DNA of 64,000 nt from a virus (lineage: Duplodnaviria; Caudoviricetes). This document shows, piece by piece, positions 17,765 to 49,449 of this stretch. A program made the translations under genes and the position numbers. The stretch covers positions 105,615-169,614 of the IMG/VR virus record IMGVR_UViG_3300028591_003737; one strand, given 5' to 3'. Each line of letters starts with the position of its first letter. Within the stretch, counting starts at the first letter, position 1. The notes under the pieces were generated by a model. It was not told the origin of the DNA and did no database searches. It worked only from the letters and a program-made list of their open reading frames with translations.

Positions 17765-18826
17765 ATGGATGAAATTATTAATAGAATAACTGTTGACCAA
17801 TTAAAAGAAAATCCTCCAGTAATTACTAAGAAATTTCTTTTAGTTGATTCATCATTATATACTAATGAAGCTTATGAATATCTTTTAGAGATTATAAATG
17901 AGACAGATTCTATCGCATTTATAAGAGATTTAAAAAAGATATATACTCATGGTGAATATTTTGGTGGAGATATTTGGGAAGAATCATTATTCTATTTTGG
18001 TAGTTTTCAGATTTTAGATAATGAAAGTGAAGAAGTATTAACTAATCTTGAAGCTGAAATAAGAAATGAAACTTTAAGATTAAAAGGAATAAATAATATT
18101 AAGTTAATTCCTGAAATAGAATGGAGTAATGGTGTTAAATATAAAACTATAAAAATTGGTTATAATATTGATAATTCAATAGATAAAACACCAGTTACTA
18201 TTGATGATAATACTGCTCAATATAATCTTGAAATAAAAGATGATAAAATATCTGTAAATAAATATATTCCAATAAGAATAGAAGCACCAAAGTTAAATCT
18301 TATAGAATATGATACAGAAATAGAATCATTTGAATTTAATATCAATATTTTAGGAAATGATGATGATAAAAGAGTAGTAATTACTTCAGACCAAGCTATT
18401 GTAAACTTATCTGATGATTTTAGAACAGTATATACTAATATACTTAGACCAAATGCTACTATTGAATATTTAGTTTTATATAGTGATTCTAAAACACAAG
18501 GAGCAATGAATATTTATCAAAAATATGGATTTGCTAATATATATTCAGTAAATCAAATAACTAAAGAAAATTTTAATTTATTTGATAAATATATATCAGA
18601 AGATAGTTGTCAAGGAGAATTTACATTAGATATTCCTGATGATCAATATGGATGGTTTGCTTGTCCAAGCTTTTTAAAACCAAAATTTATTGATAAAGAT
18701 ACAAATATTTGCGGTGGTTGGGAACAACATAGTTATGTATATTTATATTCATTAAATATGGAATATATTGTATATAAAACTGTTAATAGTGGTTTAGGAT
18801 TAACAAATTGGAAAGTTATTGAATAA
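17765..18826 (+). CDS. Probable tail/fibre-associated protein
   Basis: SIAFIRDLKKIYTHGEYF motif; late operon. Confidence 0.55.
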   Translation: MDEIINRITVDQLKENPPVITKKFLLVDSSLYTNEAYEYLLEIINETDSIAFIRDLKKIYTHGEYFGGDIWEESLFYFGSFQILDNESEEVLTNLEAEIRNETLRLKGINNIKLIPEIEWSNGVKYKTIKIGYNIDNSIDKTPVTIDDNTAQYNLEIKDDKISVNKYIPIRIEAPKLNLIEYDTEIESFEFNINILGNDDDKRVVITSDQAIVNLSDDFRTVYTNILRPNATIEYLVLYSDSKTQGAMNIYQKYGFANIYSVNQITKENFNLFDKYISEDSCQGEFTLDIPDDQYGWFACPSFLKPKFIDKDTNICGGWEQHSYVYLYSLNMEYIVYKTVNSGLGLTNWKVIE

Positions 18827-18843
18827 AATTATTAATTTAATTA

Positions 18844-20292
18844 ATGGCTAGATTAACTTATAATGAAATATTTACTAATGTTCATAAATATGATGAGACT
18901 GGTGCTTATATTGGCCTCCAAATAGCTAGTAAGTTAAATCAAAAGAATGGTCAAGATTATAAACTTATTGATGCAGTTGATATTGATTGGAATGGTGCAT
19001 TTTTAAGAATAACTGGCGCATACATTAATAATACTGAAGATTTATTTGAATCAATAAATAATATTGCAGATTTATCTGACCTTGAATGGATTAGAGAAAA
19101 GATAAATACTTTAACAGAAAATGTTGATACAATATTATCAACATATGTTACTAAAACAGAATTAGATGAAATATTAGCACAATATCAAAAACCAATATCT
19201 GCTGGTGAAAATATTACTATTGATAATGATAATGTAATTAGTACTTATGGATTAATTACTTCAGAACTTGCAAATGAGTTATTTGCTAAAGAATTAGATT
19301 TTGAAGAATTAGTTCAACGTTTAGATGAAGATTATTATACAAAAACAGAAACTGCAGAAGTTGCAGGTGAAATTACTCTTGCTACAATACAAAGTATTAT
19401 TATAAAAGATGCTGATGAAAGATATAATGATTTAGAAAAAATTTCTAATTGGATTTTATCTCAACCAGAAAGTATAACAGAAGATTTTGAAATATTTAAT
19501 AATAGATTAAATCGTATAGATGAAGCTCTTGGTTATGTAGTATATAATGAAGAATTTAATACTTATACTTATACTGATGGTCTTTTATATGAGACACATA
19601 ATCTTCAAATTCAAACAGGTGAATTAAATACCAGAATGGTTAATTTAGAGAATACTGTTGAAGATTTTGGTGTAAAAGTTACTCAAGCTTATAATACTGC
19701 AAATACTGCATATGATATGGCATATGAAGCATATACTACTTCTAATAGTTCTTCTGAAATGGCAGAACTTGCATATGAAATGGCATATACTTCTGTAGTT
19801 AAAATTGGTAATAGAAGTGAAGATGAAAGATTTGAAGAATTAACTCAAGAAGATATTGATTTATTAAATGAAGATCCTAATGCTATTCAGGTTTATACTA
19901 TTCGTGATGATAATCATTCAGGTATTCCTCTTCCAGATTATTATAATCCAGATTCTGGTTTAATATATTATAAATTTATTGAAGCCGTTGAAGGAACAGG
20001 AATTTATAAGGAACTTGAAGATGTAGTTGATATAGCAAATGAAGCTAAAGAATCAGCAGATAATTCATTATTTAGATTACATACTGATAGAAGAGGAACT
20101 ACTTATGCTTATTTATCATTATCACCAGATGAAAATGATGGTTCTGGACATAGAACAATTACTTTAAATGTTGATGAAGCACAGATAAATAGTTATAATG
20201 GTGAAATAGAACAAGAAGGTTTAATTACAACATTTTCATTATCTAATACATTATCTTATATCTCAACTTTTGAAATTATTGAGGTAAACTAG
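18844..20292 (+). CDS. Probable tail fibre-like coiled-coil protein
   Basis: Acidic; AGENITIDND and YNDLEKISNWI (DTLKEIA-like) fibre motifs. Confidence 0.55.
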   Translation: MARLTYNEIFTNVHKYDETGAYIGLQIASKLNQKNGQDYKLIDAVDIDWNGAFLRITGAYINNTEDLFESINNIADLSDLEWIREKINTLTENVDTILSTYVTKTELDEILAQYQKPISAGENITIDNDNVISTYGLITSELANELFAKELDFEELVQRLDEDYYTKTETAEVAGEITLATIQSIIIKDADERYNDLEKISNWILSQPESITEDFEIFNNRLNRIDEALGYVVYNEEFNTYTYTDGLLYETHNLQIQTGELNTRMVNLENTVEDFGVKVTQAYNTANTAYDMAYEAYTTSNSSSEMAELAYEMAYTSVVKIGNRSEDERFEELTQEDIDLLNEDPNAIQVYTIRDDNHSGIPLPDYYNPDSGLIYYKFIEAVEGTGIYKELEDVVDIANEAKESADNSLFRLHTDRRGTTYAYLSLSPDENDGSGHRTITLNVDEAQINSYNGEIEQEGLITTFSLSNTLSYISTFEIIEVN

Positions 20293-20304
20293 GTATAAAA
20301 TAAT

Positions 20305-20317
20305 TTATTTTTAAATA
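20305..20317 (+). promoter_or_regulatory. Late-type motif TTATTTTTAAATA
   Basis: Recurrent motif. Confidence 0.5.
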
Positions 20318-20363
20318 TATAAATATAAATATAAAAAATACATAATATATAATTTATAAAAAT

Positions 20364-23300
20364 ATGGCTAATTCAAATGTAAATATTGCTAATAAATTAT
20401 ATGCATATATTAAACATGGTGTTGATATATCTCCTGAGATAAAGCAGATATATAACAATTCTATGATTTTTATTGGCGATGAACAACAGATTTATGTACC
20501 AGTAATGGATACATATGTTGGTATCGGTATGACTGCATATAATGCAACAATTAACAGAATTGCATCAGTTGAAGAACAATTAAGACAATTAGCTGAAAAC
20601 CTTGCTACAGACCTTGTTACCAAGATCTATGCTGACTACTCTTTAACAGAACTTTCTAAGGGTGGTATGATCGAAGGTGGTCTTCCAGAAGGTTTTAGTG
20701 ATGATTCTTGGTCATTAAATAATGATATCACTATTAAAGGTATCAATGATTATAACCCAGAAACTCATTATGCTCGTAGAATAGTTAATGGAGAAATAAT
20801 TACTTTAACAGATGCTAATGGTGTTAGTGCTCAATTAGTAAATAATGGTAATACTTATGTTGGTGTTGCTCCTTATTCACAAGAACCAGGTGTTGAAACA
20901 TTTGTAAATGCTAGTTCTGGTATTACAATTACTCCACACTGGGGAGATAAAGTAAGAACAACTAACCCTGTTACTGGTCAAGTATTTGAAAAACGTACTG
21001 GTAACTATATCACTATTGATGATAAACTTACATGGAGCTACATGACAAGTGCTTATTCATACTCATTAGCATTTGCTCAGAATTATACAGCTTCTGAAAT
21101 TGATAGAGTTTATCATAATCTTCTTGGTGAAAGTGAAGTTACTTATAATCCTGTTTCATTCAGATCATTTGTTGATGATGTAACTGAAGAATTTTCAGCA
21201 TACACAGAAGGTTTAACAACTGATTTTATTAATCAATATAATGCATCTCACCCTGATACTTGGGTAGTATTACATGATAGTGGTACTGTTGATAGTGAAA
21301 ATAAACCTATTTATGATGGTGCTTATCGTATTGATAGAAAGAATATATATGTTGCTACATATACTGGTAATGATATTCTTCTTGGAGATAAGGTATACTT
21401 TGAAACAACTTATGCTCAAATTGCAAATGTATTAAGTGGTTCAGGTACATCATTTACACCAGCAACTGGAACTTCTTATGTATTATATGATAATGCTGAA
21501 GTTTTAGGTGTAACTTCTAATTTCTATCAGTTATATGAAAGAAGTGAACAGTATAATTCATCATATAACATGAATATTAAAGATGGTATTGAAACTCTTA
21601 AAGAAGTTGCTTACTTACTTGATGTTCTTACAGATGGTACACTTGGTGAAACAACATATTTAACATATGGTGAATGGAAAACTACAGATGCTTTAAAGGA
21701 TCTTACATTTACAGATGAAGATGGTGATGGTGTTTATACAGGAACCGTTAATGATGTAACATATACTAAAGTATATAAAGGAACTGCTCCTAATGATAAT
21801 GAGACATATGCTTTCTATACAGTAATGAATCCAGAAAATCTTGGTATTCAGATGGCTTATTCAATTGCTGGTAATAAGAAAGATATTGAAGATTTACATA
21901 AGCATGCTGAATTATTAGAAAAAGGTGAAACTACTCTTAGAAGTATTCAATCAACTAATTCACAATTTGCTAATGTAACTTTACTTGGTGGTACAAAACA
22001 TTGGACAAATACTGATACTAATCAAGGTGAAGCTAATTTCAATGATGAAGATGGTGATGGTCATAAAATTCATCCAAATCATGATGTAGATGAACATGCT
22101 AGACAAGAAAATTCATATCTTGTTGGTGATGTAAATATTAAAGTTACATTAAATACATCATTAACATATGCAACTGTTCATACTACTGATGGTACAACAA
22201 ATCCTCCATTTACTGATGAGGCTGGTGTTGAATGGCATGGTTTCTATACAGCTGCTGATATGGATGCAATAGATACAGCACATGCTACTTATTATACTAT
22301 TTCAGGTGGTGCTGGTACTTTACAAAGTCCTTATGAATTCCAACCAATAAGTGCTGCAGCTATTGCTGAAGCTCATACAAATGATTCTAGATATCAGACA
22401 GAACAGTATTATTGGGTTCCTGGTGGAATATATAATGAAGAAACTAATCCTGATGGTCTTGCTAAGAATAGTGTTACAGAAAATGCAGTATTCACAAAAA
22501 TTAAAGTTAAAGATTTATTAGCTTTAGGTGATGCTGATGATGTTAAAGATACTGGATTTACAAAGAGTGCAATTACAGAATTCTTTACTTGGGATGAAGG
22601 AAATGATAGATGGTCTAGTTTCGTCGATAATCAGGGTGGTAAAACTGCTATTTCAAAACTTATTGAGCAAGTAAATGCAGATGGTATTGATGTTAATGAT
22701 TATGTTGCATTTATTTCTAAATATGATCAAACAGTTATTCATACTGTTAATGATGAAAATAAACTTGCTACAACTGAATGGACAGAAGTTTATGTAAATT
22801 CAAAGGTTGGTGAAATTGCTGATGATCTTGAAAATATTCTTGAAGAAGCAAAGAAATATACTGATGATGAAATTGCTAAACTTGATAATGAATATATTTA
22901 TTCAGATTTCAGTACATATTGGTCATATTATGTAAGCTTAAATGTTGCTACAAATCCTAATTTAGGTGTAGAAGGTACTCCTGAATATGTAGAAGCATAT
23001 AATAGAGAATATGCAGCATTTGTTTCTAATGATAGTACAAGAGTATTTGATAGTTCATATGAAGAATCAAATCCTGGTGAAGTAAATCCTTATAGATTAA
23101 GTTATATTACTAATTCTCAATATACATATAATATTATTGAAAAGGATGGTATTGTAACAGCTGCTTCTAGAGAACTTCCTACAGATACTCTTAGAGTAAA
23201 TGCTTATGTTTGGGGTTCAGAACAAAGTTCAACAAGAATTCAATATGCTGATATTGAAAATCTTGAAATACAAGCTCCATTATTAGATGCTCTTTATGCT

Positions 23301-24359
23301 TGGAAAGATGCTAATCAAGATAATCAGATCTTTGTAATGGTTAATGATGATAATACTTGGGAACCAGTTCCTACAAATACTGATTTATCAGGTATAGATA
23401 ATTTTGGTAATTATAGAGTTAAACTTGATGATGGTAGTTTTGCTGCTGTTGAAGGTGCAGAATATTCAGTTATTCCAAGTATTTATGCTAATACAAATGA
23501 TATTAGATGGAAACCTCTTTATAAGAAAGTTCCTAAATATCTTGAATTAAATTTACAAGATGCTGTAGTTGGTGATAAGACTAATTCTATCACTATTACA
23601 AAAGATGGTGTTGTATTTACATTAACTAAGAGAAAGAGTGGTGACAATGTAGGTAAGATAGTAGTTACAAGTAGTGTTGAAGGTTATGTTTATTCAGATA
23701 ATATTCTTAAACATATTTCATCTAAACCAGCTGATTCTACTAAATATTTATCTGTTGAAAATAAACACTTCTCATATGTAGATAATGGTCATGGTGAAAA
23801 TCAGTTTGAAGTAACTGCTCATATTACAAAACTTGAAGATGCTACTCCTACAAATACAGGTTTTGCTGATGCATATGATGTAAGATCATTTATTGAAAAT
23901 ATGTTCAGATGGGTTGATATTTCAGCTACAATTTCTGCTGATACTATTAGTCATAGAGATGTATTCTTTAAGAATACTAATCTTGAAGATGTTCCTAATG
24001 GAGCTACATTATATAGCAGAAGTGAAGCTAGCAATGTTGTTACATTCACAGAAGTTAACAATCCTGTATATGGTTGGTTCTGGCTTGATGATAATAAATT
24101 TGCTGGTACTGCAACAGGCGATAGTTTATACACTAATGATATGCCTTCAGGAATTACTATTGGTACTCATATTAAGTGTGCTGTTGAAGGCTCTGAAACA
24201 ACATTCTATCTTGTTAAGAGATTCTGTGGTAATAGTGCTAATCCAGCAGTTGGTGATCCATTCTCAACAACTTATAACTATTACATCAATATTGAAACAG
24301 CTAAGACTAATCCTCTTAATCTTAATGAAACTCTTTATGGCGCACCTGTACAGGGTTAA
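20364..24359 (+). CDS. Large tail fibre/virion protein
   Basis: 1331 aa, T/G/N-rich, with IETLKEVAYLL and EEAKKYTDDEIAKL fibre-type motifs. Confidence 0.6.
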   Translation: MANSNVNIANKLYAYIKHGVDISPEIKQIYNNSMIFIGDEQQIYVPVMDTYVGIGMTAYNATINRIASVEEQLRQLAENLATDLVTKIYADYSLTELSKGGMIEGGLPEGFSDDSWSLNNDITIKGINDYNPETHYARRIVNGEIITLTDANGVSAQLVNNGNTYVGVAPYSQEPGVETFVNASSGITITPHWGDKVRTTNPVTGQVFEKRTGNYITIDDKLTWSYMTSAYSYSLAFAQNYTASEIDRVYHNLLGESEVTYNPVSFRSFVDDVTEEFSAYTEGLTTDFINQYNASHPDTWVVLHDSGTVDSENKPIYDGAYRIDRKNIYVATYTGNDILLGDKVYFETTYAQIANVLSGSGTSFTPATGTSYVLYDNAEVLGVTSNFYQLYERSEQYNSSYNMNIKDGIETLKEVAYLLDVLTDGTLGETTYLTYGEWKTTDALKDLTFTDEDGDGVYTGTVNDVTYTKVYKGTAPNDNETYAFYTVMNPENLGIQMAYSIAGNKKDIEDLHKHAELLEKGETTLRSIQSTNSQFANVTLLGGTKHWTNTDTNQGEANFNDEDGDGHKIHPNHDVDEHARQENSYLVGDVNIKVTLNTSLTYATVHTTDGTTNPPFTDEAGVEWHGFYTAADMDAIDTAHATYYTISGGAGTLQSPYEFQPISAAAIAEAHTNDSRYQTEQYYWVPGGIYNEETNPDGLAKNSVTENAVFTKIKVKDLLALGDADDVKDTGFTKSAITEFFTWDEGNDRWSSFVDNQGGKTAISKLIEQVNADGIDVNDYVAFISKYDQTVIHTVNDENKLATTEWTEVYVNSKVGEIADDLENILEEAKKYTDDEIAKLDNEYIYSDFSTYWSYYVSLNVATNPNLGVEGTPEYVEAYNREYAAFVSNDSTRVFDSSYEESNPGEVNPYRLSYITNSQYTYNIIEKDGIVTAASRELPTDTLRVNAYVWGSEQSSTRIQYADIENLEIQAPLLDALYAWKDANQDNQIFVMVNDDNTWEPVPTNTDLSGIDNFGNYRVKLDDGSFAAVEGAEYSVIPSIYANTNDIRWKPLYKKVPKYLELNLQDAVVGDKTNSITITKDGVVFTLTKRKSGDNVGKIVVTSSVEGYVYSDNILKHISSKPADSTKYLSVENKHFSYVDNGHGENQFEVTAHITKLEDATPTNTGFADAYDVRSFIENMFRWVDISATISADTISHRDVFFKNTNLEDVPNGATLYSRSEASNVVTFTEVNNPVYGWFWLDDNKFAGTATGDSLYTNDMPSGITIGTHIKCAVEGSETTFYLVKRFCGNSANPAVGDPFSTTYNYYINIETAKTNPLNLNETLYGAPVQG

Positions 24360-24430: not shown

Positions 24431-25204
24431 TTAAAGATTAATAAATTTTGATTCTTCAGGAATTTCTTCTTTATTTTCTTCAGAAGGTCCAACTAAAACT
24501 CCATTCTTTACTGCTTCATTTAATGATTCAATTGATTTATCTTCAATTTCATCCTTTGAATTTTCCTTTTCATCTACTTCTTCTTCCTCTTTATAATCAT
24601 TATCATCTGGAAGATTTTCAACATATTCATCATTTGCTTTATCTTCTGGATTATCTAGTTCATCATCTTCTAAAATAAGTTTCTTCTCACCATCTTCTTC
24701 TGGTTCATCTTCTTCATCAGGAAGATCTTCAACATATTCTATTTCCTCTTCAAGTTCATCTTTTCTATTTAAGAAACCAGTTACCATACTTGTAAGAAGA
24801 AGTGCAACAATAGGAAGAATAGCACCTTGAATATAAGAAAGAATTACATTTGCTTCAGCATCTGGAAGTTGAGTCCATATAAATAATGGTTCTTTAAAGA
24901 ATTTAAGATTATCACCAGCATTAAGAAGTAAATATTTATAACAATTATATACATTACCCATTACTTGAACTAATGTGAGTATTGTCATAAGTACCCAAGG
25001 CATTACTTTCTTTTGTTGAGTTTTATCTGTCAATATACTGAATAATACTGCTGCTTGACCTACTTCAAAAGCTACTGCAAGCATAATAGCAAGTATAGGA
25101 GTATTAGCAAGACCAAAGAAAGCAAATCCATGAATACCAGATACTAATGCTACAAATACATAAAGTAATAAGAAAAGTATTATGTAAATTTTTTTATTTT
25201 TCAT
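24431..25204 (-). CDS. Multi-pass membrane protein with acidic C-terminal tail
   Basis: About 4 hydrophobic helices followed by a D/E-rich tail; late motif at 25230-25242. Confidence 0.7.
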   Translation of the reverse strand: MKNKKIYIILFLLLYVFVALVSGIHGFAFFGLANTPILAIMLAVAFEVGQAAVLFSILTDKTQQKKVMPWVLMTILTLVQVMGNVYNCYKYLLLNAGDNLKFFKEPLFIWTQLPDAEANVILSYIQGAILPIVALLLTSMVTGFLNRKDELEEEIEYVEDLPDEEDEPEEDGEKKLILEDDELDNPEDKANDEYVENLPDDNDYKEEEEVDEKENSKDEIEDKSIESLNEAVKNGVLVGPSEENKEEIPEESKFINL

Positions 25205-25295
25205 ATCGATATTTTATATATTTACCTTTAGATTAAAAATAAAAATAAAGGCCTACTTTTTAAAATAGACCTTTATTCTTTAAAAATTCAATATC

Positions 25296-25823
25296 TTATT
25301 CTTGTGTGAATTCAGTTAATTCTGAATTATATTTAAGACTTACAGGATATTTATTTATTTCACTTGAATCAAGTTTTGATAGAACTTCATTAAGAACATT
25401 CTTTGGTTCATCATCATTCTTATCAAGAAGTTCAAACTCATCAAAAAGAATAATATACTTCAAATTTGTTAATTTGAACATATCAATCTTTTCATCTTTT
25501 ACTCTATCATCATAATATGGATCCCATTTTAAATTAATCTGTTCATCTTCATAAGTATCTGAAGAATGTTCAAATTTCTCATATTCAAAATATGCATCAT
25601 TTATATAATCCTTATTCTTACCAAGAAGATTTTGATATTTAGTATTTTCTGAAGGAAGTTCTTTAAGAAGAACATCTCCAAGATAAATTTGAATATCACT
25701 TTCAGAATAAATTTCTGGACCAGTGAGAGTAAAAACCTGTGGATTTATATCAAAAACTGCCTTAACATTAGTTAAGTGGATTTTCTCATAAGATTCTTTA
25801 ATATAATTAACTAAATTCTTCAT
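25296..25823 (-). CDS. Hypothetical protein with CTS-like leader
   Basis: Starts MKNLVNYIKE; coupled to the sigma gene by a TAATG overlap. Confidence 0.75.
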   Translation of the reverse strand: MKNLVNYIKESYEKIHLTNVKAVFDINPQVFTLTGPEIYSESDIQIYLGDVLLKELPSENTKYQNLLGKNKDYINDAYFEYEKFEHSSDTYEDEQINLKWDPYYDDRVKDEKIDMFKLTNLKYIILFDEFELLDKNDDEPKNVLNEVLSKLDSSEINKYPVSLKYNSELTEFTQE

Positions 25824-27055
25824 TATTCATCACCATCGATATTATTAAGACCAAACATCTTATCTTCCATTATTCTGGTTGAAAGATAGATTGGTTCTCC
25901 ATCATCTTCATATTCATCTTCATCATGCTTTGCTTCTTGCATAAGTTCAAAGATGTCTACGAATTTCTGGAACATTTTTTTATCTTTCTTGATAAAGTTG
26001 ATAACTTTAGCAATTTCTGCTGTAATTGAAGATGGTGAACTATAACCATACTTCTTAGCCATTTCTTTACCAGAAAGCTTCTTTTCTCCATTTTCAAGAC
26101 CAAAACCAAAGTGGTTCTTAAAGATATCCATAGTCTTTTCACCGAACTTATCTTCAAGAGCCTTAAGAATTTGTGACCAAAGGTCTTCAATTTCCTGACG
26201 GTCAATATTCTTACCAGGATTTTCCATTCCACCTACAAGGTCGAATAATGTCTTACCTTCTTCACCATCCTTTCCACCAAGATGACGGTCACCAGATACT
26301 GAATTAGATTTAGCGATATAACCTTTCTCTTCCTTTTCTTTCTTTTGTCTTGAAATAGGAATACGTACAAGATGTGAGAAATTCTTTGTTGCTTCAAGAA
26401 TTTCTACACGAATCATTTGTGCAGCATACTGAAGGAAAGTATATGACTTATACTTAGAAATATCAATTTCTTCACCAGTCAATTCTTCCTTCTTTTTCTG
26501 TTTATTACTCTTCTTTCCATAAGTGTCCATTGCATAGACAAGTCCCTTCATACCAAAGGCATAAATATCATCTCTATCGAATGAAGTCTTACCAAGCCAA
26601 GAATTAGTAATCTTATGTACAAGAGGTTCATACTTCTTTACAATTTCAGTTCTACCCTTCTCTGTAGTAAGGTCCATGATAATTTCATCAGGAGAAGCAG
26701 TCTTATCAATAATTGAATCAAACTGTTCTTTTGTCATAAGAGTAGGGATTTCAAGTATACGACCACTTGAATATATTTTACTGATGTTACTATATAATGA
26801 TTTAAGAGATGCTTCCTTTGGAAGTCCCTTATTGAAGAAATCAACAATAGCATTATCAGTATCTCCTGTAGAAAGATCTTTAATATATGTCTTATTGTTA
26901 TCAATTAACCATTTACATACTTCTTTTGCTTCAGGAGAAATAAATTTATCAGCAATTTCAAGATACTTGTTAAGCTGATCAACTGTTAAATAATTAACTG
27001 AATCCTCTTGGATTTCAATTGTTTTTGCTTCGAATAACTGCGAAAATCTCTTCAT
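25823..27055 (-). CDS. Sigma70-family RNA polymerase sigma factor with N-terminal extension and CTS-like leader
   Basis: Region 2 (IVKKYEPLVHKI..DDIYAFGMKGLVYA..TFLQYAAQMIRVEI..LVRIP) and region 4 HTH (FKNHFGF..LSGKEMAKKYG); starts MKRFSQLFE. Confidence 0.85.
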   Translation of the reverse strand: MKRFSQLFEAKTIEIQEDSVNYLTVDQLNKYLEIADKFISPEAKEVCKWLIDNNKTYIKDLSTGDTDNAIVDFFNKGLPKEASLKSLYSNISKIYSSGRILEIPTLMTKEQFDSIIDKTASPDEIIMDLTTEKGRTEIVKKYEPLVHKITNSWLGKTSFDRDDIYAFGMKGLVYAMDTYGKKSNKQKKKEELTGEEIDISKYKSYTFLQYAAQMIRVEILEATKNFSHLVRIPISRQKKEKEEKGYIAKSNSVSGDRHLGGKDGEEGKTLFDLVGGMENPGKNIDRQEIEDLWSQILKALEDKFGEKTMDIFKNHFGFGLENGEKKLSGKEMAKKYGYSSPSSITAEIAKVINFIKKDKKMFQKFVDIFELMQEAKHDEDEYEDDGEPIYLSTRIMEDKMFGLNNIDGDE

Positions 27056-27099
27056 ATTATATGTTTAATTAAACTTATTTGTTAGCATACTTCAGATAA

Positions 27100-27198
27100 A
27101 ACATAGAATAAATTTTCAAAAATTCAATATTTTTTACTAAAAAAATTAAAATATTGAAATATAAATTCCAAGTTATCTATATTTATATATAAAAATAA
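27100..27198. promoter_or_regulatory. Divergent control region: minus-strand TTGAAT-N16-TATGTT (27100-27127) and late motif (27186-27198) for the sigma gene; plus-strand TTGAAA-N18-TATATT (27154-27183)
   Basis: Matches to both recurrent motifs. Confidence 0.5.
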
Positions 27199-27216: not shown

Positions 27217-27753
27217 ATGTCTTTATTTAAATGGTCTTACCAACATTCTCTATTAGGAAGGACTATTAATATGGTATCAGATTATATATATTTCAAAAGA
27301 GATAAAAAAATAGTATCTGATACTTTATATGGTGATGCTTTTAAAGTTGTAATTAGAAAATATTTAAAGACAACTCTTAAAAAGGATTGGATTGGACGTT
27401 TATATGGTGTTGTTAATCCTAATCTTGATGAAAATGGTAAATACGATTTCAATAGTGTAATTATTGAAATTGATGGAGATAATACAAATAATAATGAATA
27501 TGTAAAGAATTGGGTTTACAGACAAATGCAATTAATTGCTTCATTATTTAAAATTGAAAAATTATATGATTATATTGATATAGACTTCAAACATGTAGGT
27601 CCTGAAAATCAAGATAATTATTTAGTTATATTCGATATAGTTTCAAGACAAAGTTTCGTTGATAGTGTAAAAAAGTTTTTCCGTCATATTTTATTTGATG
27701 GTGGTCTTACTGCAATAATACTAATAATTTTGAAACTTTTATTAATTATATAA
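27217..27753 (+). CDS. Hypothetical protein with C-terminal TM helix
   Basis: 178 aa with a hydrophobic C-terminus. Confidence 0.7.
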   Translation: MSLFKWSYQHSLLGRTINMVSDYIYFKRDKKIVSDTLYGDAFKVVIRKYLKTTLKKDWIGRLYGVVNPNLDENGKYDFNSVIIEIDGDNTNNNEYVKNWVYRQMQLIASLFKIEKLYDYIDIDFKHVGPENQDNYLVIFDIVSRQSFVDSVKKFFRHILFDGGLTAIILIILKLLLII

Positions 27754-27773
27754 AAATATTTTTAACGTTAAAA

Positions 27774-28277
27774 ATGGATGTACTTGAAAAGAAAAAGCAA
27801 TTAGCTGAGTACGAGAAGAGTTTAAAGAGTTTAACTCTTGATGAGCTTAAAGCAAAGGAACAGGAAATTATCAAAGAAGCTGATGAGAATGATAAAGCTA
27901 TCGCTTCTAAGGAATTCAAACTTCCTGGTGAAAATTATAAGGTAGTTGCAAATGGAATCAGAAACATTCTTAATAAGCAGAGTGTTGAATGGAGATTTAC
28001 TCTTGGTATGGTTTCAATGTATGAATTCTGGGATCCTGAAAATTTCCCTGGAAATGTAGGTTATCCTATGCTTGATGCAACACTTCGTACAATTGGTGAA
28101 ATGAAATTCACCGGTTATGAAGAGTGGGCAGCAGTAGTAGCAATTAATAAGTATTTTGAAACACTTCATAAAGAATATGAAGAAGCTACAGAAAAGATTT
28201 ATGATATTGCTTCTAAGCATAATGCTATCGTAGATGAAATTACTCTTCGTGAGCCAGTTAAAGCACAAGCTGAATAA
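27774..28277 (+). CDS. Hypothetical protein
   Basis: 167-aa helical ORF followed by a terminator at about 28308-28348. Confidence 0.75.
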   Translation: MDVLEKKKQLAEYEKSLKSLTLDELKAKEQEIIKEADENDKAIASKEFKLPGENYKVVANGIRNILNKQSVEWRFTLGMVSMYEFWDPENFPGNVGYPMLDATLRTIGEMKFTGYEEWAAVVAINKYFETLHKEYEEATEKIYDIASKHNAIVDEITLREPVKAQAE

Positions 28278-33107: not shown

Positions 33108-33221
33108 AATGTTTTAATGTTTTAACAATATTAATATAGCACTATTTTTTAAAAATTCAAAAAAAAAGAGGATGAATTTATCATCCTCTTTAATTTTAAC
33201 TATTTGAAAGTGATTTAGTTA

Positions 33222-33895: not shown

Positions 33896-36895
33896 TTATT
33901 TAGTTTCAATAATATTACTTGACATCTGACCTGTCTTGTAAAGTGTAAGTTCGTGAATCATCTTACCACAACCCATACCTGGTTCGATATGTGTAGAAAG
34001 AATTGCCATTTCATTGTCAATAATTTCTGGAGTATTATTTGATTCATCCATTACATTAAGATAAGCCTGAATACCACCATTAGCAGCAACTCTTGCGCAG
34101 ATGAAATTAGCTTTATCAAGGATAGCATTTCTTGTTGTAGGATTATTGAATTCCCACTGATATGCCTGAAGTACCTTTTCAATTTCATCCTGTAAGTAAA
34201 TTACAAGTTCACGTACATTTACTTTAGAAAGAGCTGAAACAGGAGTCTGTTTTGCAGTCTGGTTAGCATTGATAAATGTACCAAAACCTGGACGGTAAAC
34301 AAGACAGTTAACACCAAATGGTTCAATAATCTGAAGTTCATCCATTGAGTAACTGTAATCAGGACCTACAAGATCTGCACATTCAATCTTAGCATTGTTA
34401 GGACCAGCTACGATGTAGTAAGGCTGTCTTGATGTGTACTTAGTCATGAATAAGTTAGAAACAACACCTGCTGAAGGAACGATTGTATCTACATAACCAT
34501 CACTGAGTTTCATTGGTGAATAGAATGCTGCAAATGATGCACCTTCTGCTTCTGTAGGAAGTGAGAATTTCTTACCAAATGCTTTCTTCTTATTATAACC
34601 AGCAGCTACATATGCTACATTGAATACACCCTTAGCATCTGTGAATGAAGTGTAAGGACATTTAAGGAATGTCTTTACTGAAGGGAAGTTAAGAATTGCA
34701 AATGCACTCTGCTTTTCTTTTGCAAGGTATGAAAGAACCTTCTTAGCTGAGCTATCAACATAAGTTTCAAATGTATCAATGATATATCTGTAGTCGATAT
34801 TAGCTTTATTAAGAAGAGCAGTCTTAAGACCCTTATATTCAGAAATAGCTGAAAGTAAGAAGTTCTGCCAATTAAGTTTGTCAATCATGCTTGTTGAAGC
34901 AGGTTTGCCATTCTTATATACATAACCTTCAAGATACTGAGGAACGAATGTACCAATTTCCTGATTAAGAGCAGCATCAATTCTTACAAGATATGAATTA
35001 CCATCATTATCTACTTTAAGAAGAGGTTCACCAGTTAATCTGATAATATATTTAACTTTATCAGTACCTTCTATCTTTTCTGAAAGAATTTCCTGAACAT
35101 ATACATTATCGAAGAAACCATCTTCTGCATCAGCTTCACCATCACCATCTTTATCAATAGAACCGTCTTCTGCAAGGAAGCAGTCACCTACTGAAAGACT
35201 TGTGAAAATACTCTTGTCCCAAGGACTATCAGCGTTTACAAATTCATAAACACCATTATTTTCACTACCAACCCATGCTTGATCATCAACAGGAATAAAT
35301 GTTACTGAAGAACCATAAACTGTATTAGCTTCATCATCATTCTTTACAGATTCTGGTGTAACTTCTACTAATGAAACCTTCATGTTATTATCTGTATCAC
35401 CATAAACACCATAAGGAGATGTTGCTGAAGTTGCTTCAAGACGAGTAATAGAAGTAATAACTGTAGCAGGACCTTCTGATGTAAATTCACCATTTTCATC
35501 AATGAATGCATTACCACTTGTAAATACTGAACCATAACCATCTGTTAAAATACCATTTTCACCAATAGCATTTAATTTACCAAGAATAGTATTGAATTCA
35601 GCAGCATTATCACCACATTCAATATCAATTGTCTTCTGAGAATCACCTACTTGTGTAAGAGTAATCTTATGATTTTCTTCATCAATATTAGATATATAAA
35701 GTGTACCTGTTACTTTCTTTTCATTCTTATTATCGAAATCAATAATAGCTTTAAGAGCACCATTTTCATCTCTCTTAACAACATTGTTTGTAAATTCAAC
35801 CTTTTCAGAAACAACAGGAGCATTTAAGTTACCAAGAAGTGAAGTAGTTGCAGTACCATTAAATAAATTATCAAGTAATTCTTCATTAATTGAAAGTCTA
35901 CCTGAAAGATCAATATTAGCAATACCATCTTCTTCAAGTAAATCAACATTGAAACTCATCATCATATTGTGAGTATCACTGTCATTATTGAAAAGTATAT
36001 CAAGTGCTGCATAACCACCTTGCTTGTTCTTGAAGTAAGGAATAAGAGCACCTACATAGTGACCGATAGCACCAGATGTTTCATCTGCATAAAGAGCATC
36101 AAGAGCATCGATTTCATCACCATAAGCATTAAGAACATGTTTCTTTAATTTAACATCTTCTGAGTTAATATCATCTACACCATCGAAATAGAATTTAAGT
36201 GTTGAAGAAGCAAGAACCTGTGATTTTGTGAATTTTCCTTTGAATACATAGATTTCTGCAAAGAAGTCAGAAATTAATGAATTCTTATATGGTTCAAGAT
36301 ATTCTGGAAGTTCTTCATCTGAATACCAATCACTTACTGTGATATTATATCCATTTACTTTAGAACCAGAAGCTTTACGGATAAAGTATGTACCTGATAA
36401 CTGCTTAGTGTTGATAGCACTAATGTTAATGTACTGATCCATGAAAGCACCAGAAGCTGATTTAAGACCATTAAGTTTTTCTGCAGAAAGTTCCCAGAAT
36501 CTTGTTGTGTCATAAATATCTTCAACATTTAACTTAACTGTGTTAATAATATCGTATTTAGGATTAAAGTCTGTATTGATAGTTGCAGCATCAACTGTTT
36601 CACCATCAAACTTCTTAAGGTTCAAGCAAAGGATAGGACCAGATGCAAGAGCCTGAATAGCGATACGATGGAAGAAAACTCCTCTCTTTTCGAGTTTCTT
36701 TGAAATATCACCATAAACAGCTTTAAAATCAGTAACAGATGTAATATAAGTAGGAATGTTGAAAGGACCCTTTTCTGAGTAACCAACAACAAGTCTAAGA
36801 ACACTACTTTCTACGCCAGCTACGGTTGATTTATCAAAAACAATACGGTATATACCAGCAGCTTTAAATTGTTGTAAATAAACTGGAATAGCCAT
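33896..36895 (-). CDS. Contractile tail sheath protein (gp18-like)
   Basis: N-terminal AGIY..VVGYSEKGPFNIP; C-terminal SALSKVNVRELVIYL..WEFNN..DESNNTPEIIDNE. Confidence 0.92.
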   Translation of the reverse strand: MAIPVYLQQFKAAGIYRIVFDKSTVAGVESSVLRLVVGYSEKGPFNIPTYITSVTDFKAVYGDISKKLEKRGVFFHRIAIQALASGPILCLNLKKFDGETVDAATINTDFNPKYDIINTVKLNVEDIYDTTRFWELSAEKLNGLKSASGAFMDQYINISAINTKQLSGTYFIRKASGSKVNGYNITVSDWYSDEELPEYLEPYKNSLISDFFAEIYVFKGKFTKSQVLASSTLKFYFDGVDDINSEDVKLKKHVLNAYGDEIDALDALYADETSGAIGHYVGALIPYFKNKQGGYAALDILFNNDSDTHNMMMSFNVDLLEEDGIANIDLSGRLSINEELLDNLFNGTATTSLLGNLNAPVVSEKVEFTNNVVKRDENGALKAIIDFDNKNEKKVTGTLYISNIDEENHKITLTQVGDSQKTIDIECGDNAAEFNTILGKLNAIGENGILTDGYGSVFTSGNAFIDENGEFTSEGPATVITSITRLEATSATSPYGVYGDTDNNMKVSLVEVTPESVKNDDEANTVYGSSVTFIPVDDQAWVGSENNGVYEFVNADSPWDKSIFTSLSVGDCFLAEDGSIDKDGDGEADAEDGFFDNVYVQEILSEKIEGTDKVKYIIRLTGEPLLKVDNDGNSYLVRIDAALNQEIGTFVPQYLEGYVYKNGKPASTSMIDKLNWQNFLLSAISEYKGLKTALLNKANIDYRYIIDTFETYVDSSAKKVLSYLAKEKQSAFAILNFPSVKTFLKCPYTSFTDAKGVFNVAYVAAGYNKKKAFGKKFSLPTEAEGASFAAFYSPMKLSDGYVDTIVPSAGVVSNLFMTKYTSRQPYYIVAGPNNAKIECADLVGPDYSYSMDELQIIEPFGVNCLVYRPGFGTFINANQTAKQTPVSALSKVNVRELVIYLQDEIEKVLQAYQWEFNNPTTRNAILDKANFICARVAANGGIQAYLNVMDESNNTPEIIDNEMAILSTHIEPGMGCGKMIHELTLYKTGQMSSNIIETK

Positions 36896-37099: not shown

Positions 37100-38827
37100 T
37101 TAGATAAGTCCAAATTCTGAACCAACTGTAAATGTGAAGTACTGTGTTTCTGGATAGAAACCAGCGTCAACAATAGCATATCTTGAGTTAACAAGCATCT
37201 TAGGAGCCATTGTACCTTCAGCTGTGATAGATACTGTATCAGCAAGAATATAAGGCATAAAGATTACACCAGGTTCATTACCGTTACCCTTTCTACCAAC
37301 GCAAACTCTTGTGTCATCCCAATCCATATAAGGATCAACATAAACCTTAAGACCTGCAATTGTACCACTCATGAATAAGTTCTGTGAACCATCCTGTGCG
37401 AAGTTGTTTACCATAGGAGCAACAACATAACCACTAACATCCTGAAGAGCTGTAGCAACCTGAGCATTTGTAACAACCCATGTTGGTCTACCTCTACGTC
37501 CAGTTACCTGGATAAGGTTAGCAGCAGCAAGAAGCTTAGAACCAATTCTTCTCTGACGAGTATGAAGATTTTCAGCACTTGTGTTAACTTCACTGTTCTT
37601 GATTGTTCCCCAATCTCCTTTGTGTTCTACACCATATACATCCTTGAAAGTCTTGATTGACTGAGCAGCCATTGTGCTATCTGATGTACCCATCCAAAGG
37701 TTAAGGTCAACACCCTGATAGATCTTCTGGTTAATAGCGTTAGTTACACCAAGAGCAAATACATGTTCAAGAATTCTAGCATTGATTGACTGAGTGATTT
37801 CATTCTGCATTGCTTCCATAACCTTAGCAACAGCGTCAACACCGTAAAGAGGAAGATCCTGAAGTTGCTGTCTTGTTACAGTACCAGTTACTTCATAAGA
37901 ACCCATCTGTACCCATTTGCTGAATAATCTAAGACCAAGTACATTACCTGTACCAGTTTCATTTTCAGCTCTTGTCATTGATCTCTTTTCACCAGTTGCG
38001 AAGTTAGCGAAACCATCAACGAAATCAACCATTGTCTGAGCGAAATCAACTGAAGTTACATTACCAGCAGCAACACCGCTAAGAACTGCAGGATTTACAC
38101 CATCGAAAAGATCTGCTACAGCAGCGTGACCATCAGCACCTTCGCAAGAAACAACCTTAACGATAAGACCGTGATCCATTCTACCAAGCTGTACAAATGT
38201 ACCCTTGAATGTTACACCATTACCTACAACAGTAACTGATTTGTCAGCATCATCAGCAAGTTTTCTAAGAGCTGCTGTATCACCATCAAAACCAAGGAAT
38301 TTTACATAAAGAGGTTTGTTTTCAGCACCTTCTCCTCTACCATCAAGGCCAGCTACTTCGTTCTTTCTACCCATCTTACCACCAGCATATGGGAAGTCCA
38401 TATAAGTTAACATTGCCCAAGGACCTTTAGCAGGAATAACTGGAACAAGTTCAAGACCGATTGTAAGAAGTGCTACGTTAAGGGCCATAGGAAGTGTTGA
38501 TACAGGAATATCACCGCTACCAACTGCCTGTTTAAAGAAGTCACCTGATGCACCCATTGGAACCTGACCATTAGCACCATAACCTGGAGCCATTGGATTA
38601 CCCATACCAAGAGTATTAAGAGGTGTAGCATAAAGTGGAGAAACACCCTGTGCAGGAGCTACCTGACCATTGATATTAGCGCCACCAACACCAAGCATTG
38701 ATTCATGAATTTCATGGATAGCTGCATATTGTGATACCCAGTTTAACTTTTCGTTATCTGTAACGTTGAAATTTTCTTTCAACATTTTAGTCCACATCTG
38801 TGTACCATTTTGTTCGTTAATAAACAT
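37100..38827 (-). CDS. Major capsid protein (T4 gp23-like)
   Basis: TRQQLQDL..GVDAVA..NEITQSIN..GRRGRPTWVVT..GTIAGLKVYVDPY..GVIFMPYI..PKMLVNSRYA; strong codon bias. Confidence 0.92.
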   Translation of the reverse strand: MFINEQNGTQMWTKMLKENFNVTDNEKLNWVSQYAAIHEIHESMLGVGGANINGQVAPAQGVSPLYATPLNTLGMGNPMAPGYGANGQVPMGASGDFFKQAVGSGDIPVSTLPMALNVALLTIGLELVPVIPAKGPWAMLTYMDFPYAGGKMGRKNEVAGLDGRGEGAENKPLYVKFLGFDGDTAALRKLADDADKSVTVVGNGVTFKGTFVQLGRMDHGLIVKVVSCEGADGHAAVADLFDGVNPAVLSGVAAGNVTSVDFAQTMVDFVDGFANFATGEKRSMTRAENETGTGNVLGLRLFSKWVQMGSYEVTGTVTRQQLQDLPLYGVDAVAKVMEAMQNEITQSINARILEHVFALGVTNAINQKIYQGVDLNLWMGTSDSTMAAQSIKTFKDVYGVEHKGDWGTIKNSEVNTSAENLHTRQRRIGSKLLAAANLIQVTGRRGRPTWVVTNAQVATALQDVSGYVVAPMVNNFAQDGSQNLFMSGTIAGLKVYVDPYMDWDDTRVCVGRKGNGNEPGVIFMPYILADTVSITAEGTMAPKMLVNSRYAIVDAGFYPETQYFTFTVGSEFGLI

Positions 38828-38943: not shown

Positions 38944-40689
38944 TTAAGCTCTTCTGAGTCTCATCATCTGAGCATATACATTGTTATAATGACTTTCAAG
39001 AACGTCCTTTGGTTCTTCAACTGACTGAGGAGTTTTTGCTGAAGCAAAATCTACACTCTGCCAGAATGATTCAAGAACACCTTCTTTCTTAAAGTCATAA
39101 GCCTTTGACATTCTAACTATTTCGTCTTGTCTTTCTTCTGAAAGAGCATTCCAAGATGGCTGATATTCAGCAGGCATATTTTCAACTACGTATACACCAG
39201 CGAACTTATCTTGTGCTTTCTGTTCTTTTACAAGCTGTGAGATAGCTTCATCTTTGTTTTCAAGGCTTTCAATAAGAGCGTCAATATCTGAAAGCTTAGC
39301 AGATTTCTGACTTTCCATGAAAGCAGAAACATTTTCATTTACTTTTGCTTCGATATTAGCATTGTTTTCAGGAGTATATTCTTCATTAATCCAACCTTCG
39401 ATAACTGGAGCAAATTCTTCACAAACCCAATTCTGAACTTCTGGTGCAAATTCTTCACATACCCAATTCTGTACTTCTGGAGCAAATTCTTCACATACCC
39501 AGTTCTGTACTTCTGGAGCGAATTCTTCTGTAATCCAATTCTGTACTTCAGGAGCGAATTCTTCGCATACCCAATTCTGAATAGTTTCTGAGAAATTCTC
39601 AACTACCCAATTTTGAACATCTGAATTAATAGACTCTGAAAGTTCTGTCTTAAATTCAGGAGCAAATTCTTCTGTAACCCATTTTTCAATCTTTTCATAC
39701 TGAGGAGCTTCATAAGCATTTACCTTTTCATTTACACCATTAAGTGTTTCATTAACACTATTAATAGAAGTATTAACACCTTCAAGTGTTTCATTAAGTT
39801 TTGCAATTTCTGCATCCTTAGCTGTTAATGATTCTTGAGCAACATGAAGTTCAGCTTCTAAACTAGTTACCTTTTCAGTAAGTTTATCAATTGCTTCTTT
39901 TAAATCATTCATTGTAGTATCTTGACTATTTTTGTTATTATCATCTTTATCAGATGTATCTTCTTTATTTTCATCGTCATTTTCTTCATCTTCTTTCTTG
40001 TCATCACCTTCTTCAGATTTTTCATCTTTCTTAGGTTCGTTTTCAGAAGAAGAATCTCCTTCACCTTTATCCTTGTTGTCTTTATTATCTTCTTCACCAA
40101 GTAAATCATCGTCTTCGCTTTCATCTACGATAGCCCAGATTTCATTACCGTCTTCAGCAGATTCATTTAAACATTCAAGGGTTTGATTGGCTTTAAGGTT
40201 TAATTTAGCTTGAGCAAAACCAGGTGTACCAACTAAGTCATAAGTTTTAATAGTAGAAAGTGTTACATTACCATTTTCATCAATAGAACCAGCACCTCTA
40301 GAAGAAATATAAAGAGGAACACCACCAGCAACAATAGCTTTTGCATCTTTACCTTTAGCAGTATCAAGTAAAAGAATTGTACCAGTAATTGTACCATCTT
40401 CATTCATTTCAATAGACTCAATCTTATGTGAAACATTATTAAGATTAATATTCATAGTATTAGGATGTTCAAGTTCTCCAAGAAGACCTTCAGTTGAAAT
40501 AACTTTTTGAAGATTTTCAACCATTAATCCGTAATTTTCCTTTGAATATATACGTCTATTTTCATTCTTAATTCCGCAAACACCAAATACACCTGTCATA
40601 CGAACTTCATTAGTATTCTGAGACTCCTGGATCTGCAATCCTGTTGTAGGTCCTAAAGTTTCAAATACCATGCATTTTTTATTTGCCAT
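38944..40689 (-). CDS. Prohead protease (gp21-like) fused to a scaffold/core (gp22-like) region
   Basis: N-terminal GVFG..KNENRRIYS..LGELEHP..VSHKI..ISSRGAGS..TYDLVGTPG, followed by an acidic linker and coiled coil. Confidence 0.9.
   Translation of the reverse strand: MANKKCMVFETLGPTTGLQIQESQNTNEVRMTGVFGVCGIKNENRRIYSKENYGLMVENLQKVISTEGLLGELEHPNTMNINLNNVSHKIESIEMNEDGTITGTILLLDTAKGKDAKAIVAGGVPLYISSRGAGSIDENGNVTLSTIKTYDLVGTPGFAQAKLNLKANQTLECLNESAEDGNEIWAIVDESEDDDLLGEEDNKDNKDKGEGDSSSENEPKKDEKSEEGDDKKEDEENDDENKEDTSDKDDNNKNSQDTTMNDLKEAIDKLTEKVTSLEAELHVAQESLTAKDAEIAKLNETLEGVNTSINSVNETLNGVNEKVNAYEAPQYEKIEKWVTEEFAPEFKTELSESINSDVQNWVVENFSETIQNWVCEEFAPEVQNWITEEFAPEVQNWVCEEFAPEVQNWVCEEFAPEVQNWVCEEFAPVIEGWINEEYTPENNANIEAKVNENVSAFMESQKSAKLSDIDALIESLENKDEAISQLVKEQKAQDKFAGVYVVENMPAEYQPSWNALSEERQDEIVRMSKAYDFKKEGVLESFWQSVDFASAKTPQSVEEPKDVLESHYNNVYAQMMRLRRA
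39368..39690 (-). repeat. 33-bp tandem repeat encoding QNW(V/I)(C/T)EEFAPEV
   Basis: Five near-identical units plus three degenerate ones within the protease-scaffold gene. Confidence 0.9.
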
Positions 40690-41745: not shown

Positions 41746-41792
41746 ATTGTCTATTGTTTTACACTATTAATATAGTATTAAAACTAAATAAT

Positions 41793-42116
41793 TCAATACT
41801 TAGGATAAATATATAATATCATATTGTTTGTTTTACAAGGTTTTTCAACATCTAAATTTTCTTCAATCCATTTAGCAACTGGTTTATATATCCATCTATG
41901 TTGTTTCTGTACTGATAAGAAAATATATTTCTTTGATTTACCTACGTTAATATATTCTTCATAATTATCAAATTTTACTAATCCAGAATATTTTTCAATA
42001 ATATATTTTTTAATCTCTGAAATAAATTTATTGTTTATTTCATCAATATCATCTAATACTTCTGTTTCTTTATTTAAGTGAAGTTTTTCTAATATGTAAT
42101 TATTGATATTAATCAT
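41793..42116 (-). CDS. Leader-bearing small protein (EKLHLNK family)
   Basis: MININNYILEKLHLNKE. Confidence 0.75.
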   Translation of the reverse strand: MININNYILEKLHLNKETEVLDDIDEINNKFISEIKKYIIEKYSGLVKFDNYEEYINVGKSKKYIFLSVQKQHRWIYKPVAKWIEENLDVEKPCKTNNMILYIYPKY

Positions 42117-42118
42117 TT

Positions 42119-42547
42119 TTATTTATATAATTTTTTATTACCATCAATATATTCATAATATTCATCATATAGTTCTCTACCTGATAAATGCATACTATCA
42201 TTACCAAAAGTTATAGTTACTCTACTTCTATTAACTAACCATTCAATAATTCTTCTATGTTTTTTAATTAATAAAAATATATCACCATCTCTTCTATTAA
42301 TATCAGACATACTAAAACTATATTGGAAATAATTATTTAAAATATTAATAATTTCTTCATAATCTATTCTACCCCAATATATTTGTTTTTGAAATGTAGA
42401 ATTTTCTTTATATATTTTATATATCATAATACATAAATATGTAGCAATGATAATATCTCTAACTTTATCAATATTATCAATTTCAGATGATTCAAAATCT
42501 TTATTTAAATGTAATTTTTCAGATATATAATTATTAATGTTAATCAT
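42119..42547 (-). CDS. Leader-bearing small protein (EKLHLNK family)
   Basis: MININNYISEKLHLNKD. Confidence 0.75.
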   Translation of the reverse strand: MININNYISEKLHLNKDFESSEIDNIDKVRDIIIATYLCIMIYKIYKENSTFQKQIYWGRIDYEEIINILNNYFQYSFSMSDINRRDGDIFLLIKKHRRIIEWLVNRSRVTITFGNDSMHLSGRELYDEYYEYIDGNKKLYK

Positions 42548-44572: not shown

Positions 44573-44586
44573 AATATATTATTTAA

Positions 44587-45489: not shown

Positions 45490-45491
45490 AA

Positions 45492-46723: not shown

Positions 46724-46724
46724 A

Positions 46725-47540: not shown

Positions 47541-47549
47541 AATATTTAT

Positions 47550-49445: not shown

Positions 49446-49449
49446 AATT

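Follow-up and report, generated by a model that had tools for sequence, protein, structure and literature searches.

We analyzed 64,000 nucleotides (nt) of a tailed phage (Caudoviricetes), hereafter the window, which correspond to positions 105,615 to 169,614 of the IMG/VR record IMGVR_UViG_3300028591_003737 and form the last 64 kb of a single viral contig of 169,614 bp (GC content of 27%; completeness of about 60% by CheckV). On the minus strand, at 25823..27055, an open reading frame (ORF) of 410 aa encodes a predicted sigma70-family factor, sigma-1, whose gene lies behind a late and an early promoter in tandem and whose product starts with a peptide similar to the capsid targeting sequence of phage T4 internal proteins. 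The best explanation of these features, to which we give a probability of about 0.4, would be that late-made sigma-1 is packaged, trimmed and ejected, and reprograms the host core polymerase, a reading that draws on the sequence and on analogy with known phages.

Sigma-1 as a divergent sigma70-family factor

Sigma-1 itself matched no Pfam and no PHROGs family, a tblastn search against 50,697 phage records gave no match, and a single-sequence phmmer search against the PDB returned nothing useful. The curated sigma70 family cut-offs of Pfam and NCBIfam are not reached; the NCBIfam model TIGR02937 matched residues 202-355 (E value of 7.7e-8) with 32.1 bits, below its cut-off of 42.9. Sigma-1 has 256 homologs, many of which carry a precomputed Pfam Sigma70_r2 assignment (PF04542) and two of which were named sigma-70 family by the Joint Genome Institute. 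When a profile of 33 homologs was compared to the PDB, only sigma factors matched (SigA best, 3.6e-6), and regions 2.1-2.2 and 2.3-2.4 of sigma-1 were aligned to SigA and RpoS. The AlphaFold (AF2) model of sigma-1, with a predicted local distance difference test (pLDDT) score of 74.3, had exclusively sigma70/SigA chains as top Foldseek matches, with a probability of 1.0. Using VIA-align, residues 121/130-227 superposed on solved sigma domain 2 at 1.5-2.7 Å (Z of 10-12), and the alignment ran on through sigma4 to residues 363-373, for a sigma2-to-sigma4 span of 121-373. Profile and superposition both recovered domain 2 with its core-binding and -10-melting motifs (regions 2.1-2.4), and the model contains the helix-turn-helix of domain 4, the DNA-contact residues of which are not conserved. 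Profile and model mark the ORF as a real, though very divergent, member of the sigma70 family, which would be expected to bind core polymerase and to direct promoter-specific initiation.

The predicted architecture comprises six parts, all on the minus strand. Residues 1-10, MKRFSQLFEA (27026..27055), form a leader variant that ends in L-F-E then A, with a pLDDT below 50 for residues 1-9. They precede an acidic N-terminal domain made of helices (residues 11-128, with a net charge of -7; 26672..27025; domain model with a pLDDT of 88.9 and a predicted template modelling score of 0.83). Sigma domain 2 (regions 1.2/2.1-2.4, about residues 129-232; 26360..26671) has an insert of about 20 aa between regions 2.2 and 2.3; it superposed on SigE, RpoS, sigma70, sigma28 and SigA with a root-mean-square deviation of 1.5-2.7 Å and is covered by the hidden Markov model (HMM) alignment to SigA. 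Next come a linker that is short and poorly ordered and lacks a globular sigma3, and then sigma domain 4 (residues ~300-373; 25937..26158), which is matched by TIGR02937 and aligns in the model with sigma4 of sigmaS, sigma70, SigB and sigma28. By our own reading of the alignment, the -35-contacting Arg, Glu and Gln of sigma70 are replaced by Ser, Thr and Ala in the sigma4 helix. An acidic C-terminal tail (residues 374-410, net charge -11, low pLDDT; 25826..25936) closes the protein, whose overall net charge is -10.

Folded alone, the N-terminal domain (residues 10-128) was modelled confidently (pLDDT of 88.9). No solved relative of this domain was found, the best VIA Z being 3.1 and the best Foldseek E value 0.46, and a fold assignment was dropped on these scores; the ESM Atlas offered no more than a weak lead (0.83), which pointed to sigma region 1.1. 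Together, profile, TIGR02937, model and superposition bear out a preliminary description of the window, made from its letters, which had seen in this gene a sigma70 region 2 and region 4 protein with an N-terminal extension of about 130 aa. Packaged or not, sigma-1 represents a large, unannotated sigma family (at least 256 members), the N-terminal domain of which lacks a solved relative.

Two promoter classes and their tandem upstream of sigma-1

Two sharply defined promoter classes were found. The late (L) motif TTATTTTTATATA, often followed by TAAATA, has 21 exact copies in the contig, 17 of them intergenic. For most copies, the distance to the start codon of a structural gene downstream (capsid, sheath, fibres, giant virion proteins) is 16-28 nt, and for a minority it is 46-130 nt; the exact 13-mer occurs 8 times in the window for 0.15 expected. 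The early/middle (E) class has the consensus TTGAATTT-N13-CTATATTA, then TAATGTAA. In short, the class is TTGAAT-N16-TATATT. It has 5 copies in the window for 0.35 expected, and E sites are located 23-27 nt before the genes for ligase, polynucleotide kinase, DNA polymerase and Dam methylase and before many small genes. Because L precedes structural genes and E precedes this second set, the early and late labels look right, the timing being deduced from the gene content behind each motif. A 410-kb relative of 97% completeness, G002, contains 49 E and 41 L sites. By contrast, sigma-1 and both motif classes are missing from Tenacibaculum phage PTm1 and from the uncultured phage LR756500.1, and the two classes are therefore specific to the clade that carries sigma-1. 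Since these two genomes lack both sigma-1 and the motifs, the comparison was uninformative as a test of which class sigma-1 reads. The two classes could be used for annotating uncultured megaphage relatives.

The element TAATGTAA forms a third conserved part of the E class, 3-9 nt past the -10-like box (window 6337-6364, 33133-33160, 41769-41796 and others), and may be the start-site region. It is missing from the E site of sigma-1.

Upstream of sigma-1, both classes are present on the minus strand, as the preliminary description had noted. The E site, TTGAAT-N16-TATGTT (27100..27127), fits the class pattern and lies 44 nt before the ATG; the L site, TTATTTTTATATA + TAAATATAG (27177..27198), with an exact copy of the 13-mer at 27186-27198, lies 130 nt before it. 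The two sites point the same way, and no terminator was found between them or between the late motif and the gene. Such a same-strand tandem of L and E is a single case in the 170-kb contig, at sigma-1, and a single case in 400 kb of G002, again at this gene. All nine orthologous loci that could be read (L002, L003, L004, L011, L012 and L019-L022; 42-90% protein identity) retain an E site together with a late motif that is exact or nearly so, the order being reversed in three of them and the remainder of the spacer having diverged. This pattern of conservation argues that the tandem arrangement is under selection. The 5' leader from the late promoter to the ATG showed no significant RNA structure (z of -0.12). 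As the unique tandem drives the operon, sigma-1 would be made in both phases; the exact late motif upstream points to the late expression typical of T4-type cargo, with a timing deduced from gene sets. A strictly conserved early plus late tandem, unique per genome, is a result independent of packaging.

A leader similar to the T4 capsid targeting sequence

Many proteins of this phage share a short N-terminal leader. The pattern M-x2-[LIVMF]-x2-[YF]-[ILVM]-x-E starts 31 of 216 ORFs, compared to 1 of 774 internal Met positions, and in G002 it starts 84 of 498 ORFs (17%), compared to 4 of 2524 internal Met positions. Past the leader, the protein bodies are unrelated, with a single related pair among 465. 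Upstream of leader genes, the closest promoter was L in 26 of 28 cases, whereas other genes have 54 L and 84 E (Fisher 1e-7); the leader arrays are not independent in this test, yet all six arrays begin at an L site. The same holds in G002, with 56 L and 4 E for leader genes against 112 L and 204 E for other genes. Arrays of leader proteins are located at 41793-53897 and 62458-63843 of the window and at 18265-24085 and 55433-57233 of the contig; almost all of them lie directly behind late promoters and stop where an E-class promoter begins.

The T4 proteins IPII and IPIII start MKTYQEFIAEA, and in the T4 leader, targeting depends on residues 4 and 7, and cleavage by gp21 on residues 8 and 10 (PMC9026906). 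The window encodes a prohead protease of the T4 gp21 family at 38944..40689 (minus strand; Pfam Peptidase_S77, 36.5 bits for a cut-off of 27; phrog_207), fused to a scaffold-like coiled coil, so that a protease of the type that processes T4 cargo stands in the same genome as the leaders; G002 has a Peptidase_S77 protease too (46.8 bits). By analogy, this gp21-type protease would remove the leaders. Taken together, the likeness to T4, the unrelated bodies, the protease and the late genes make a putative T4-like head-loading role the best reading of the leader. The same protease/coiled-coil fusion is annotated in Tenacibaculum phage PTm1 as 'prohead core scaffolding protein and protease'.

Sigma-1 seems to carry this leader only loosely in the present genome. 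Its N-terminus has F4, L7, F8 and E9 and scores -4.1 with the leader position-specific scoring matrix (PSSM), for at least 16 in true leaders; the reading of MKRFSQLFE in the preliminary description as a leader variant holds for a variant only, with Glu at 9 and outside the strict pattern. The family is closer: its consensus, MKKFSQ[LIF][IV]xE[AS], fits the pattern, and 14 of 33 aligned members have a PSSM score above the 99th percentile. Among 117 family representatives, [LIVMF]-x-E occurs within residues 4-14 in all 117 (background of 16-21%) and is followed by A, S, G or T in 109 (background of 3-4%); the Glu is residue 9 in 59 of them, residue 10 in 39 and residue 11 in 9. In the model, the peptide is predicted to be disordered, ahead of the folded domain.

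The stop codon of sigma-1 overlaps the start of the following gene (25296..25823, minus strand) as TAATG, which confirms the coupling to another leader-bearing gene that had been described. This translationally coupled gene encodes an acidic protein of 175 aa (net charge of -17) with the strict leader MKNLVNYIKE. In its family of 109 members, M1 and E10 are invariant, E10 being found in 26 of 26 aligned relatives. No Pfam or PHROGs family, no PDB profile match and no Atlas match was obtained for it. From its N-termini, the operon is one that encodes two leader-type proteins.

The phage, its probable host and its polymerase

The window contains a myovirus gene set with a tail sheath (33896-36895), a major capsid protein (37100-38827) and the prohead protease. 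The capsid protein shares 32-38% identity with its counterparts in Sphingomonas phage PAU, Tenacibaculum phages pT24/PTm1, Prevotella Lak megaphages and huge uncultured phages. The phage is a relative of the group of Lak, PTm1 and PAU. It is a large phage, from gut or rumen, with a host that is probably a member of the Bacteroidota. A Shine-Dalgarno core precedes just 6 of 197 genes, for a background of 6%, and A is found at position -3 in 69% of the genes. Both the absence of Shine-Dalgarno sequences and A at -3 are hallmarks of Bacteroidota translation (PMC7366714). On these grounds the host looks Bacteroidota-like, in line with the Bacteroidales host that the preliminary description had set as a condition.

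The nearest public contigs (JAFRDD010000051.1; tags IJH39_08305 and IJH39_08310) were deposited as 'MAG: Clostridia bacterium', that is, as a metagenome-assembled genome (MAG). One of these contigs has a TonB-dependent receptor gene, and because of this gene and of genes without Shine-Dalgarno sequences, the label is probably a binning error and these relatives are probably wrongly binned phage contigs. A host search with the phage TonB-dependent receptor returned solely a mis-binned phage contig and a Bacteroidetes match at 23% identity.

We found no Rpb1 or Rpb2 domain match in the 170-kb contig, no RNA polymerase beta' (Rpb1) domain match in the 97%-complete G002, and, in the giant ORFs, no DxDGD motif, although very divergent polymerases could be missed. 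This is in line with what has been published on group 2 jumbo phages, Lak included, which have no polymerase, encode sigma factors and run on the host polymerase (PMC7824862). With no detectable RNA polymerase, the phage would therefore have to use the host core polymerase, and a transcription start without a virion RNA polymerase, as first proposed, is consistent with both genomes.

A second sigma factor

A family HMM found exactly two sigma factors on the contig, sigma-1 and sigma-2, and G002 has exactly two Sigma70_r2 matches. Sigma-2 is a protein of 416 aa with a GTG start, outside the window (contig 90858-92108, minus strand), identified by Pfam regions 2 and 4 and strong RpoD-type NCBIfam matches (RpoD_Cterm, 4e-20). 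It has no leader, has Lys at two -35-contact positions and is 30% identical to sigma-1 over 124 residues. No gp55-like or third sigma was found: ten guessed ORFs gave no matches and the family HMM gives two, on a contig that is about 60% complete.

In the sigma-2 region (contig 90858-92240; L001:838-2240, minus strand), we observed upstream of the gene an E-like -10, ACTATTTTAT, the -35 of which is mis-spaced. It is followed by a hairpin that contains TATAAATA and runs up to the start codon. At sigma-2, the 410-kb relative retains the -10, a hairpin and the GTG and lacks TTGAAT. Sigma-2 looks to be under separate transcriptional or translational control.

Possible roles of sigma-1

In the mechanism that we favor, the late-made pool of sigma-1 would enter the prohead through its T4-like N-terminal peptide and be trimmed after L-F-E by the gp21-type protease. 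Trimmed sigma-1 would be ejected with the DNA and would at once reprogram the host core polymerase, after which the early/middle promoter would renew it. In one of two circuits that fit these observations, injected sigma-1 would read the E promoters, its own included, and sigma-2 would read the L promoters; these would then yield structural proteins, cargo and new sigma-1 for packaging. This circuit is favored because the leader-like peptide is conserved, the operon partner has a strict leader and every other leader gene is late. It is also favored by G002, where the E class is the sole abundant non-late class and no separate host-type early class is evident, which requires that the factor reading E be there at time zero. 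In the contig, host-type promoters (TTG-N18-22-TAnnTTTG) show no enrichment (20 for 15 in the control), and in G002 they have no strand bias. The loading of sigma-1 into virions is plausible from its sequence, a shade short of an even chance in our estimate. The full model, in which virion sigma-1 starts early transcription, appears rather unlikely. We judge equally unlikely a loop across generations, in which late-made sigma-1 would be packaged with its acidic partner, trimmed, injected and direct the Bacteroidota core polymerase to TTGAAT/TATATT promoters unreadable by host sigma-A, its own promoter included.

Several observations weigh against packaging or against the reading of E promoters by sigma-1. 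Sigma-1 fails the strict leader pattern (Glu at 9, Leu and not an aromatic residue at 7, PSSM of -4.1), and its Glu drifts over positions 6-13 across the family whereas true leader families hold E10 invariant. The sigma4 of sigma-1, without the usual -35-contacting basic residues, would fit -35-less late promoters better than the E class. Sigma-2, leaderless and closer to RpoD, could read the E promoters. The canonical promoter is TTGACA-N17-TATAAT, and the E class is close to that form. Moreover, the Bacteroidota consensus is TTTG near -33 and TAnnTTTG at -7 (PMC7366714). The E class, as TTG-N19-TAnnTT, has the geometry of this consensus minus the final TG, and host sigma-A might therefore start at E promoters, although this TG is missing from all strong E sites. 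The preliminary description had argued that, with a Bacteroidales host, TTGAWT/TATATT promoters need a phage sigma at time zero; the promoter classes themselves proved real and clade-specific, but this need is put in doubt by their geometry and by sigma-2.

Alternatively, sigma-1 could be an unpackaged member of a cascade, an explanation that we consider quite possible, if on balance doubtful. Host sigma-A or sigma-2 would then fire the E promoters and sigma-1 would read the L promoters, its own L site included, giving positive autoregulation, and the leader likeness would be coincidental or serve another purpose. A sigma gene behind an early plus a late promoter is classically that of a late sigma that activates itself, and by this analogy the tandem of sigma-1 fits such a positive-feedback sigma equally well. 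Such a circuit is also favored because sigma-2 is the more RpoD-like and canonical of the two (RpoD_Cterm at 4e-20, Lys at two -35-contact positions) while the E class is near TTGACA-N17-TATAAT, and because Ser, Thr and Ala at the DNA-contact positions of the sigma-1 sigma4 helix suit -35-less late promoters. The off-register leader of sigma-1 and the use of host polymerase with phage sigma factors by group 2 jumbo phages (PMC7824862) agree with it. However, it leaves unexplained the disordered hydrophobic-x-Glu-[AS] N-terminus found family-wide, the conserved translational coupling to a strict-leader protein and the lateness of every other leader-type gene. The late-made, packaged and autoregulated sigma that had first been proposed is supported by the late leader genes, the gp21-family protease and the tandem promoters, whereas the off-register leader and the late-sigma feedback layout speak against it.

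Sigma-1 might also be packaged and injected to act as a competitor. Perhaps held by the 175-aa partner, it would vie with host sigma-A for the core and thereby silence or bias the transcription of the host at time zero, in analogy with T4 Alt, which modifies polymerase on entry. The leader, late-promoter and protease evidence would be the same as for a packaged sigma-1 that reprograms the polymerase, both operon products are acidic (sigma-1 -10, partner -17) and the sigma4 helix is non-canonical. We find this quite improbable, as the competition and the binding of sigma-1 to its partner are conjectural and the fully conserved promoter-melting region of sigma2 suggests a real initiation activity. 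The N-terminal peptide could instead be an inhibitory pro-sequence, like those of Bacillus pro-sigma-E and pro-sigma-K, cut by the phage protease to time sigma activity with no packaging. A conserved short peptide that ends in a protease-type site, in a genome that encodes a gp21-family serine protease, would suit this role, which is nevertheless highly improbable: its 9-10 residues are shorter than known pro-sequences, and T4 gp21 works inside the prohead core (PMC9026906), which makes a cytoplasmic cleavage unlikely.

Comparison with known systems

The leaders resemble those of T4 IPII and IPIII (and Alt) in being a 10-residue tag with the same key positions (MKTYQEFIAE then A in T4, MKKFSQLIKE then S in the sigma-1 family), in the presence of a gp21-family protease, in the lateness of the leader genes and in the unrelated cargo bodies. 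Unlike in T4, the cargo here would be a sigma factor, in which residue 9 is Glu and residue 7 is Leu, a member of the Bacteroidota is the probable host, and packaging and cleavage are predicted. As a phage relative of sigma70 in a genome with temporal promoter classes and no polymerase of its own, sigma-1 is similar to SPO1 gp28 and gp33/34, T4 gp55 and the sigma factors of group 2 jumbo phages (PMC7824862); unlike these cascade factors, it has an extra N-terminal domain without solved relative, a leader-like tag and a unique E and L tandem. With 410 aa, a sigma4 and the N-terminal domain, sigma-1 is not of the gp55 type. T4 gp55 is minimal, with about 185 aa, a region-2-like domain only and no sigma4.

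In Salmonella phage Arash, the sigma factor Gp10 was detected in virions by mass spectrometry, and beta and beta' subunits of the phage's own polymerase are packaged as well (PMC10585845). A sigma-family protein is thus found in particles there and may be carried in particles here; unlike in Arash, no polymerase is detectable in our phage, and the Arash sigma and sigma-1 have no sequence match. Phages with virion RNA polymerases, N4, phiKZ/AR9 and crAss-like phages, deliver the whole enzyme (PMC7598289). The purpose would be the same, a time-zero transcription independent of host promoter specificity, with only the specificity subunit delivered here.

Taken singly, phage sigma factors, T4 capsid targeting sequences and transcription enzymes delivered by virions all have precedents; in the literature that we searched, there was no description of a sigma factor with a capsid targeting sequence serving the host polymerase. 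Phages take over early transcription either by promoters that the host holoenzyme can read or by injecting a whole RNA polymerase. If the proposed mechanism is true, injection of a sigma alone by T4-type head loading would be a third and much cheaper route, in which delivery of the specificity subunit replaces a virion RNA polymerase. It would also explain the use of host-unlike promoters by large Bacteroidota phages.

Neighboring genes and minor observations

A terminator-like hairpin (25241..25280, minus strand) closes the two-gene operon. The hairpin region after the 175-aa gene (25241-25291, minus strand) overlaps an E-like match, TTGAATTTTTAAAGAATAAAGGTCTATTTT, before the gene of a membrane protein with a long acidic tail (24431..25204, minus strand). 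This protein has the same position and N-terminus in L002, L004, L011 and L012; it always follows the sigma/175-aa pair in relatives, with the common N-terminus MK..KKI..LF.LLY..VA, and may be the third member of the module. On the other side, two divergent genes of 178 and 167 aa (27217..28277, plus strand) are neighbors conserved in synteny, both being found beside sigma-1 in at least six relatives; the 178-aa protein has a C-terminal hydrophobic helix. Read in reverse complement, the late motif of sigma-1 resembles an E-type -10 (CTATATT) for these two genes.

At 61854-62408 of the window, the coding strand is ambiguous. A minus-strand GTG ORF of 180 aa lies right behind the E promoter at 62402-62429 and is more likely to be the real gene than the overlapping plus-strand ORF of 178 aa.

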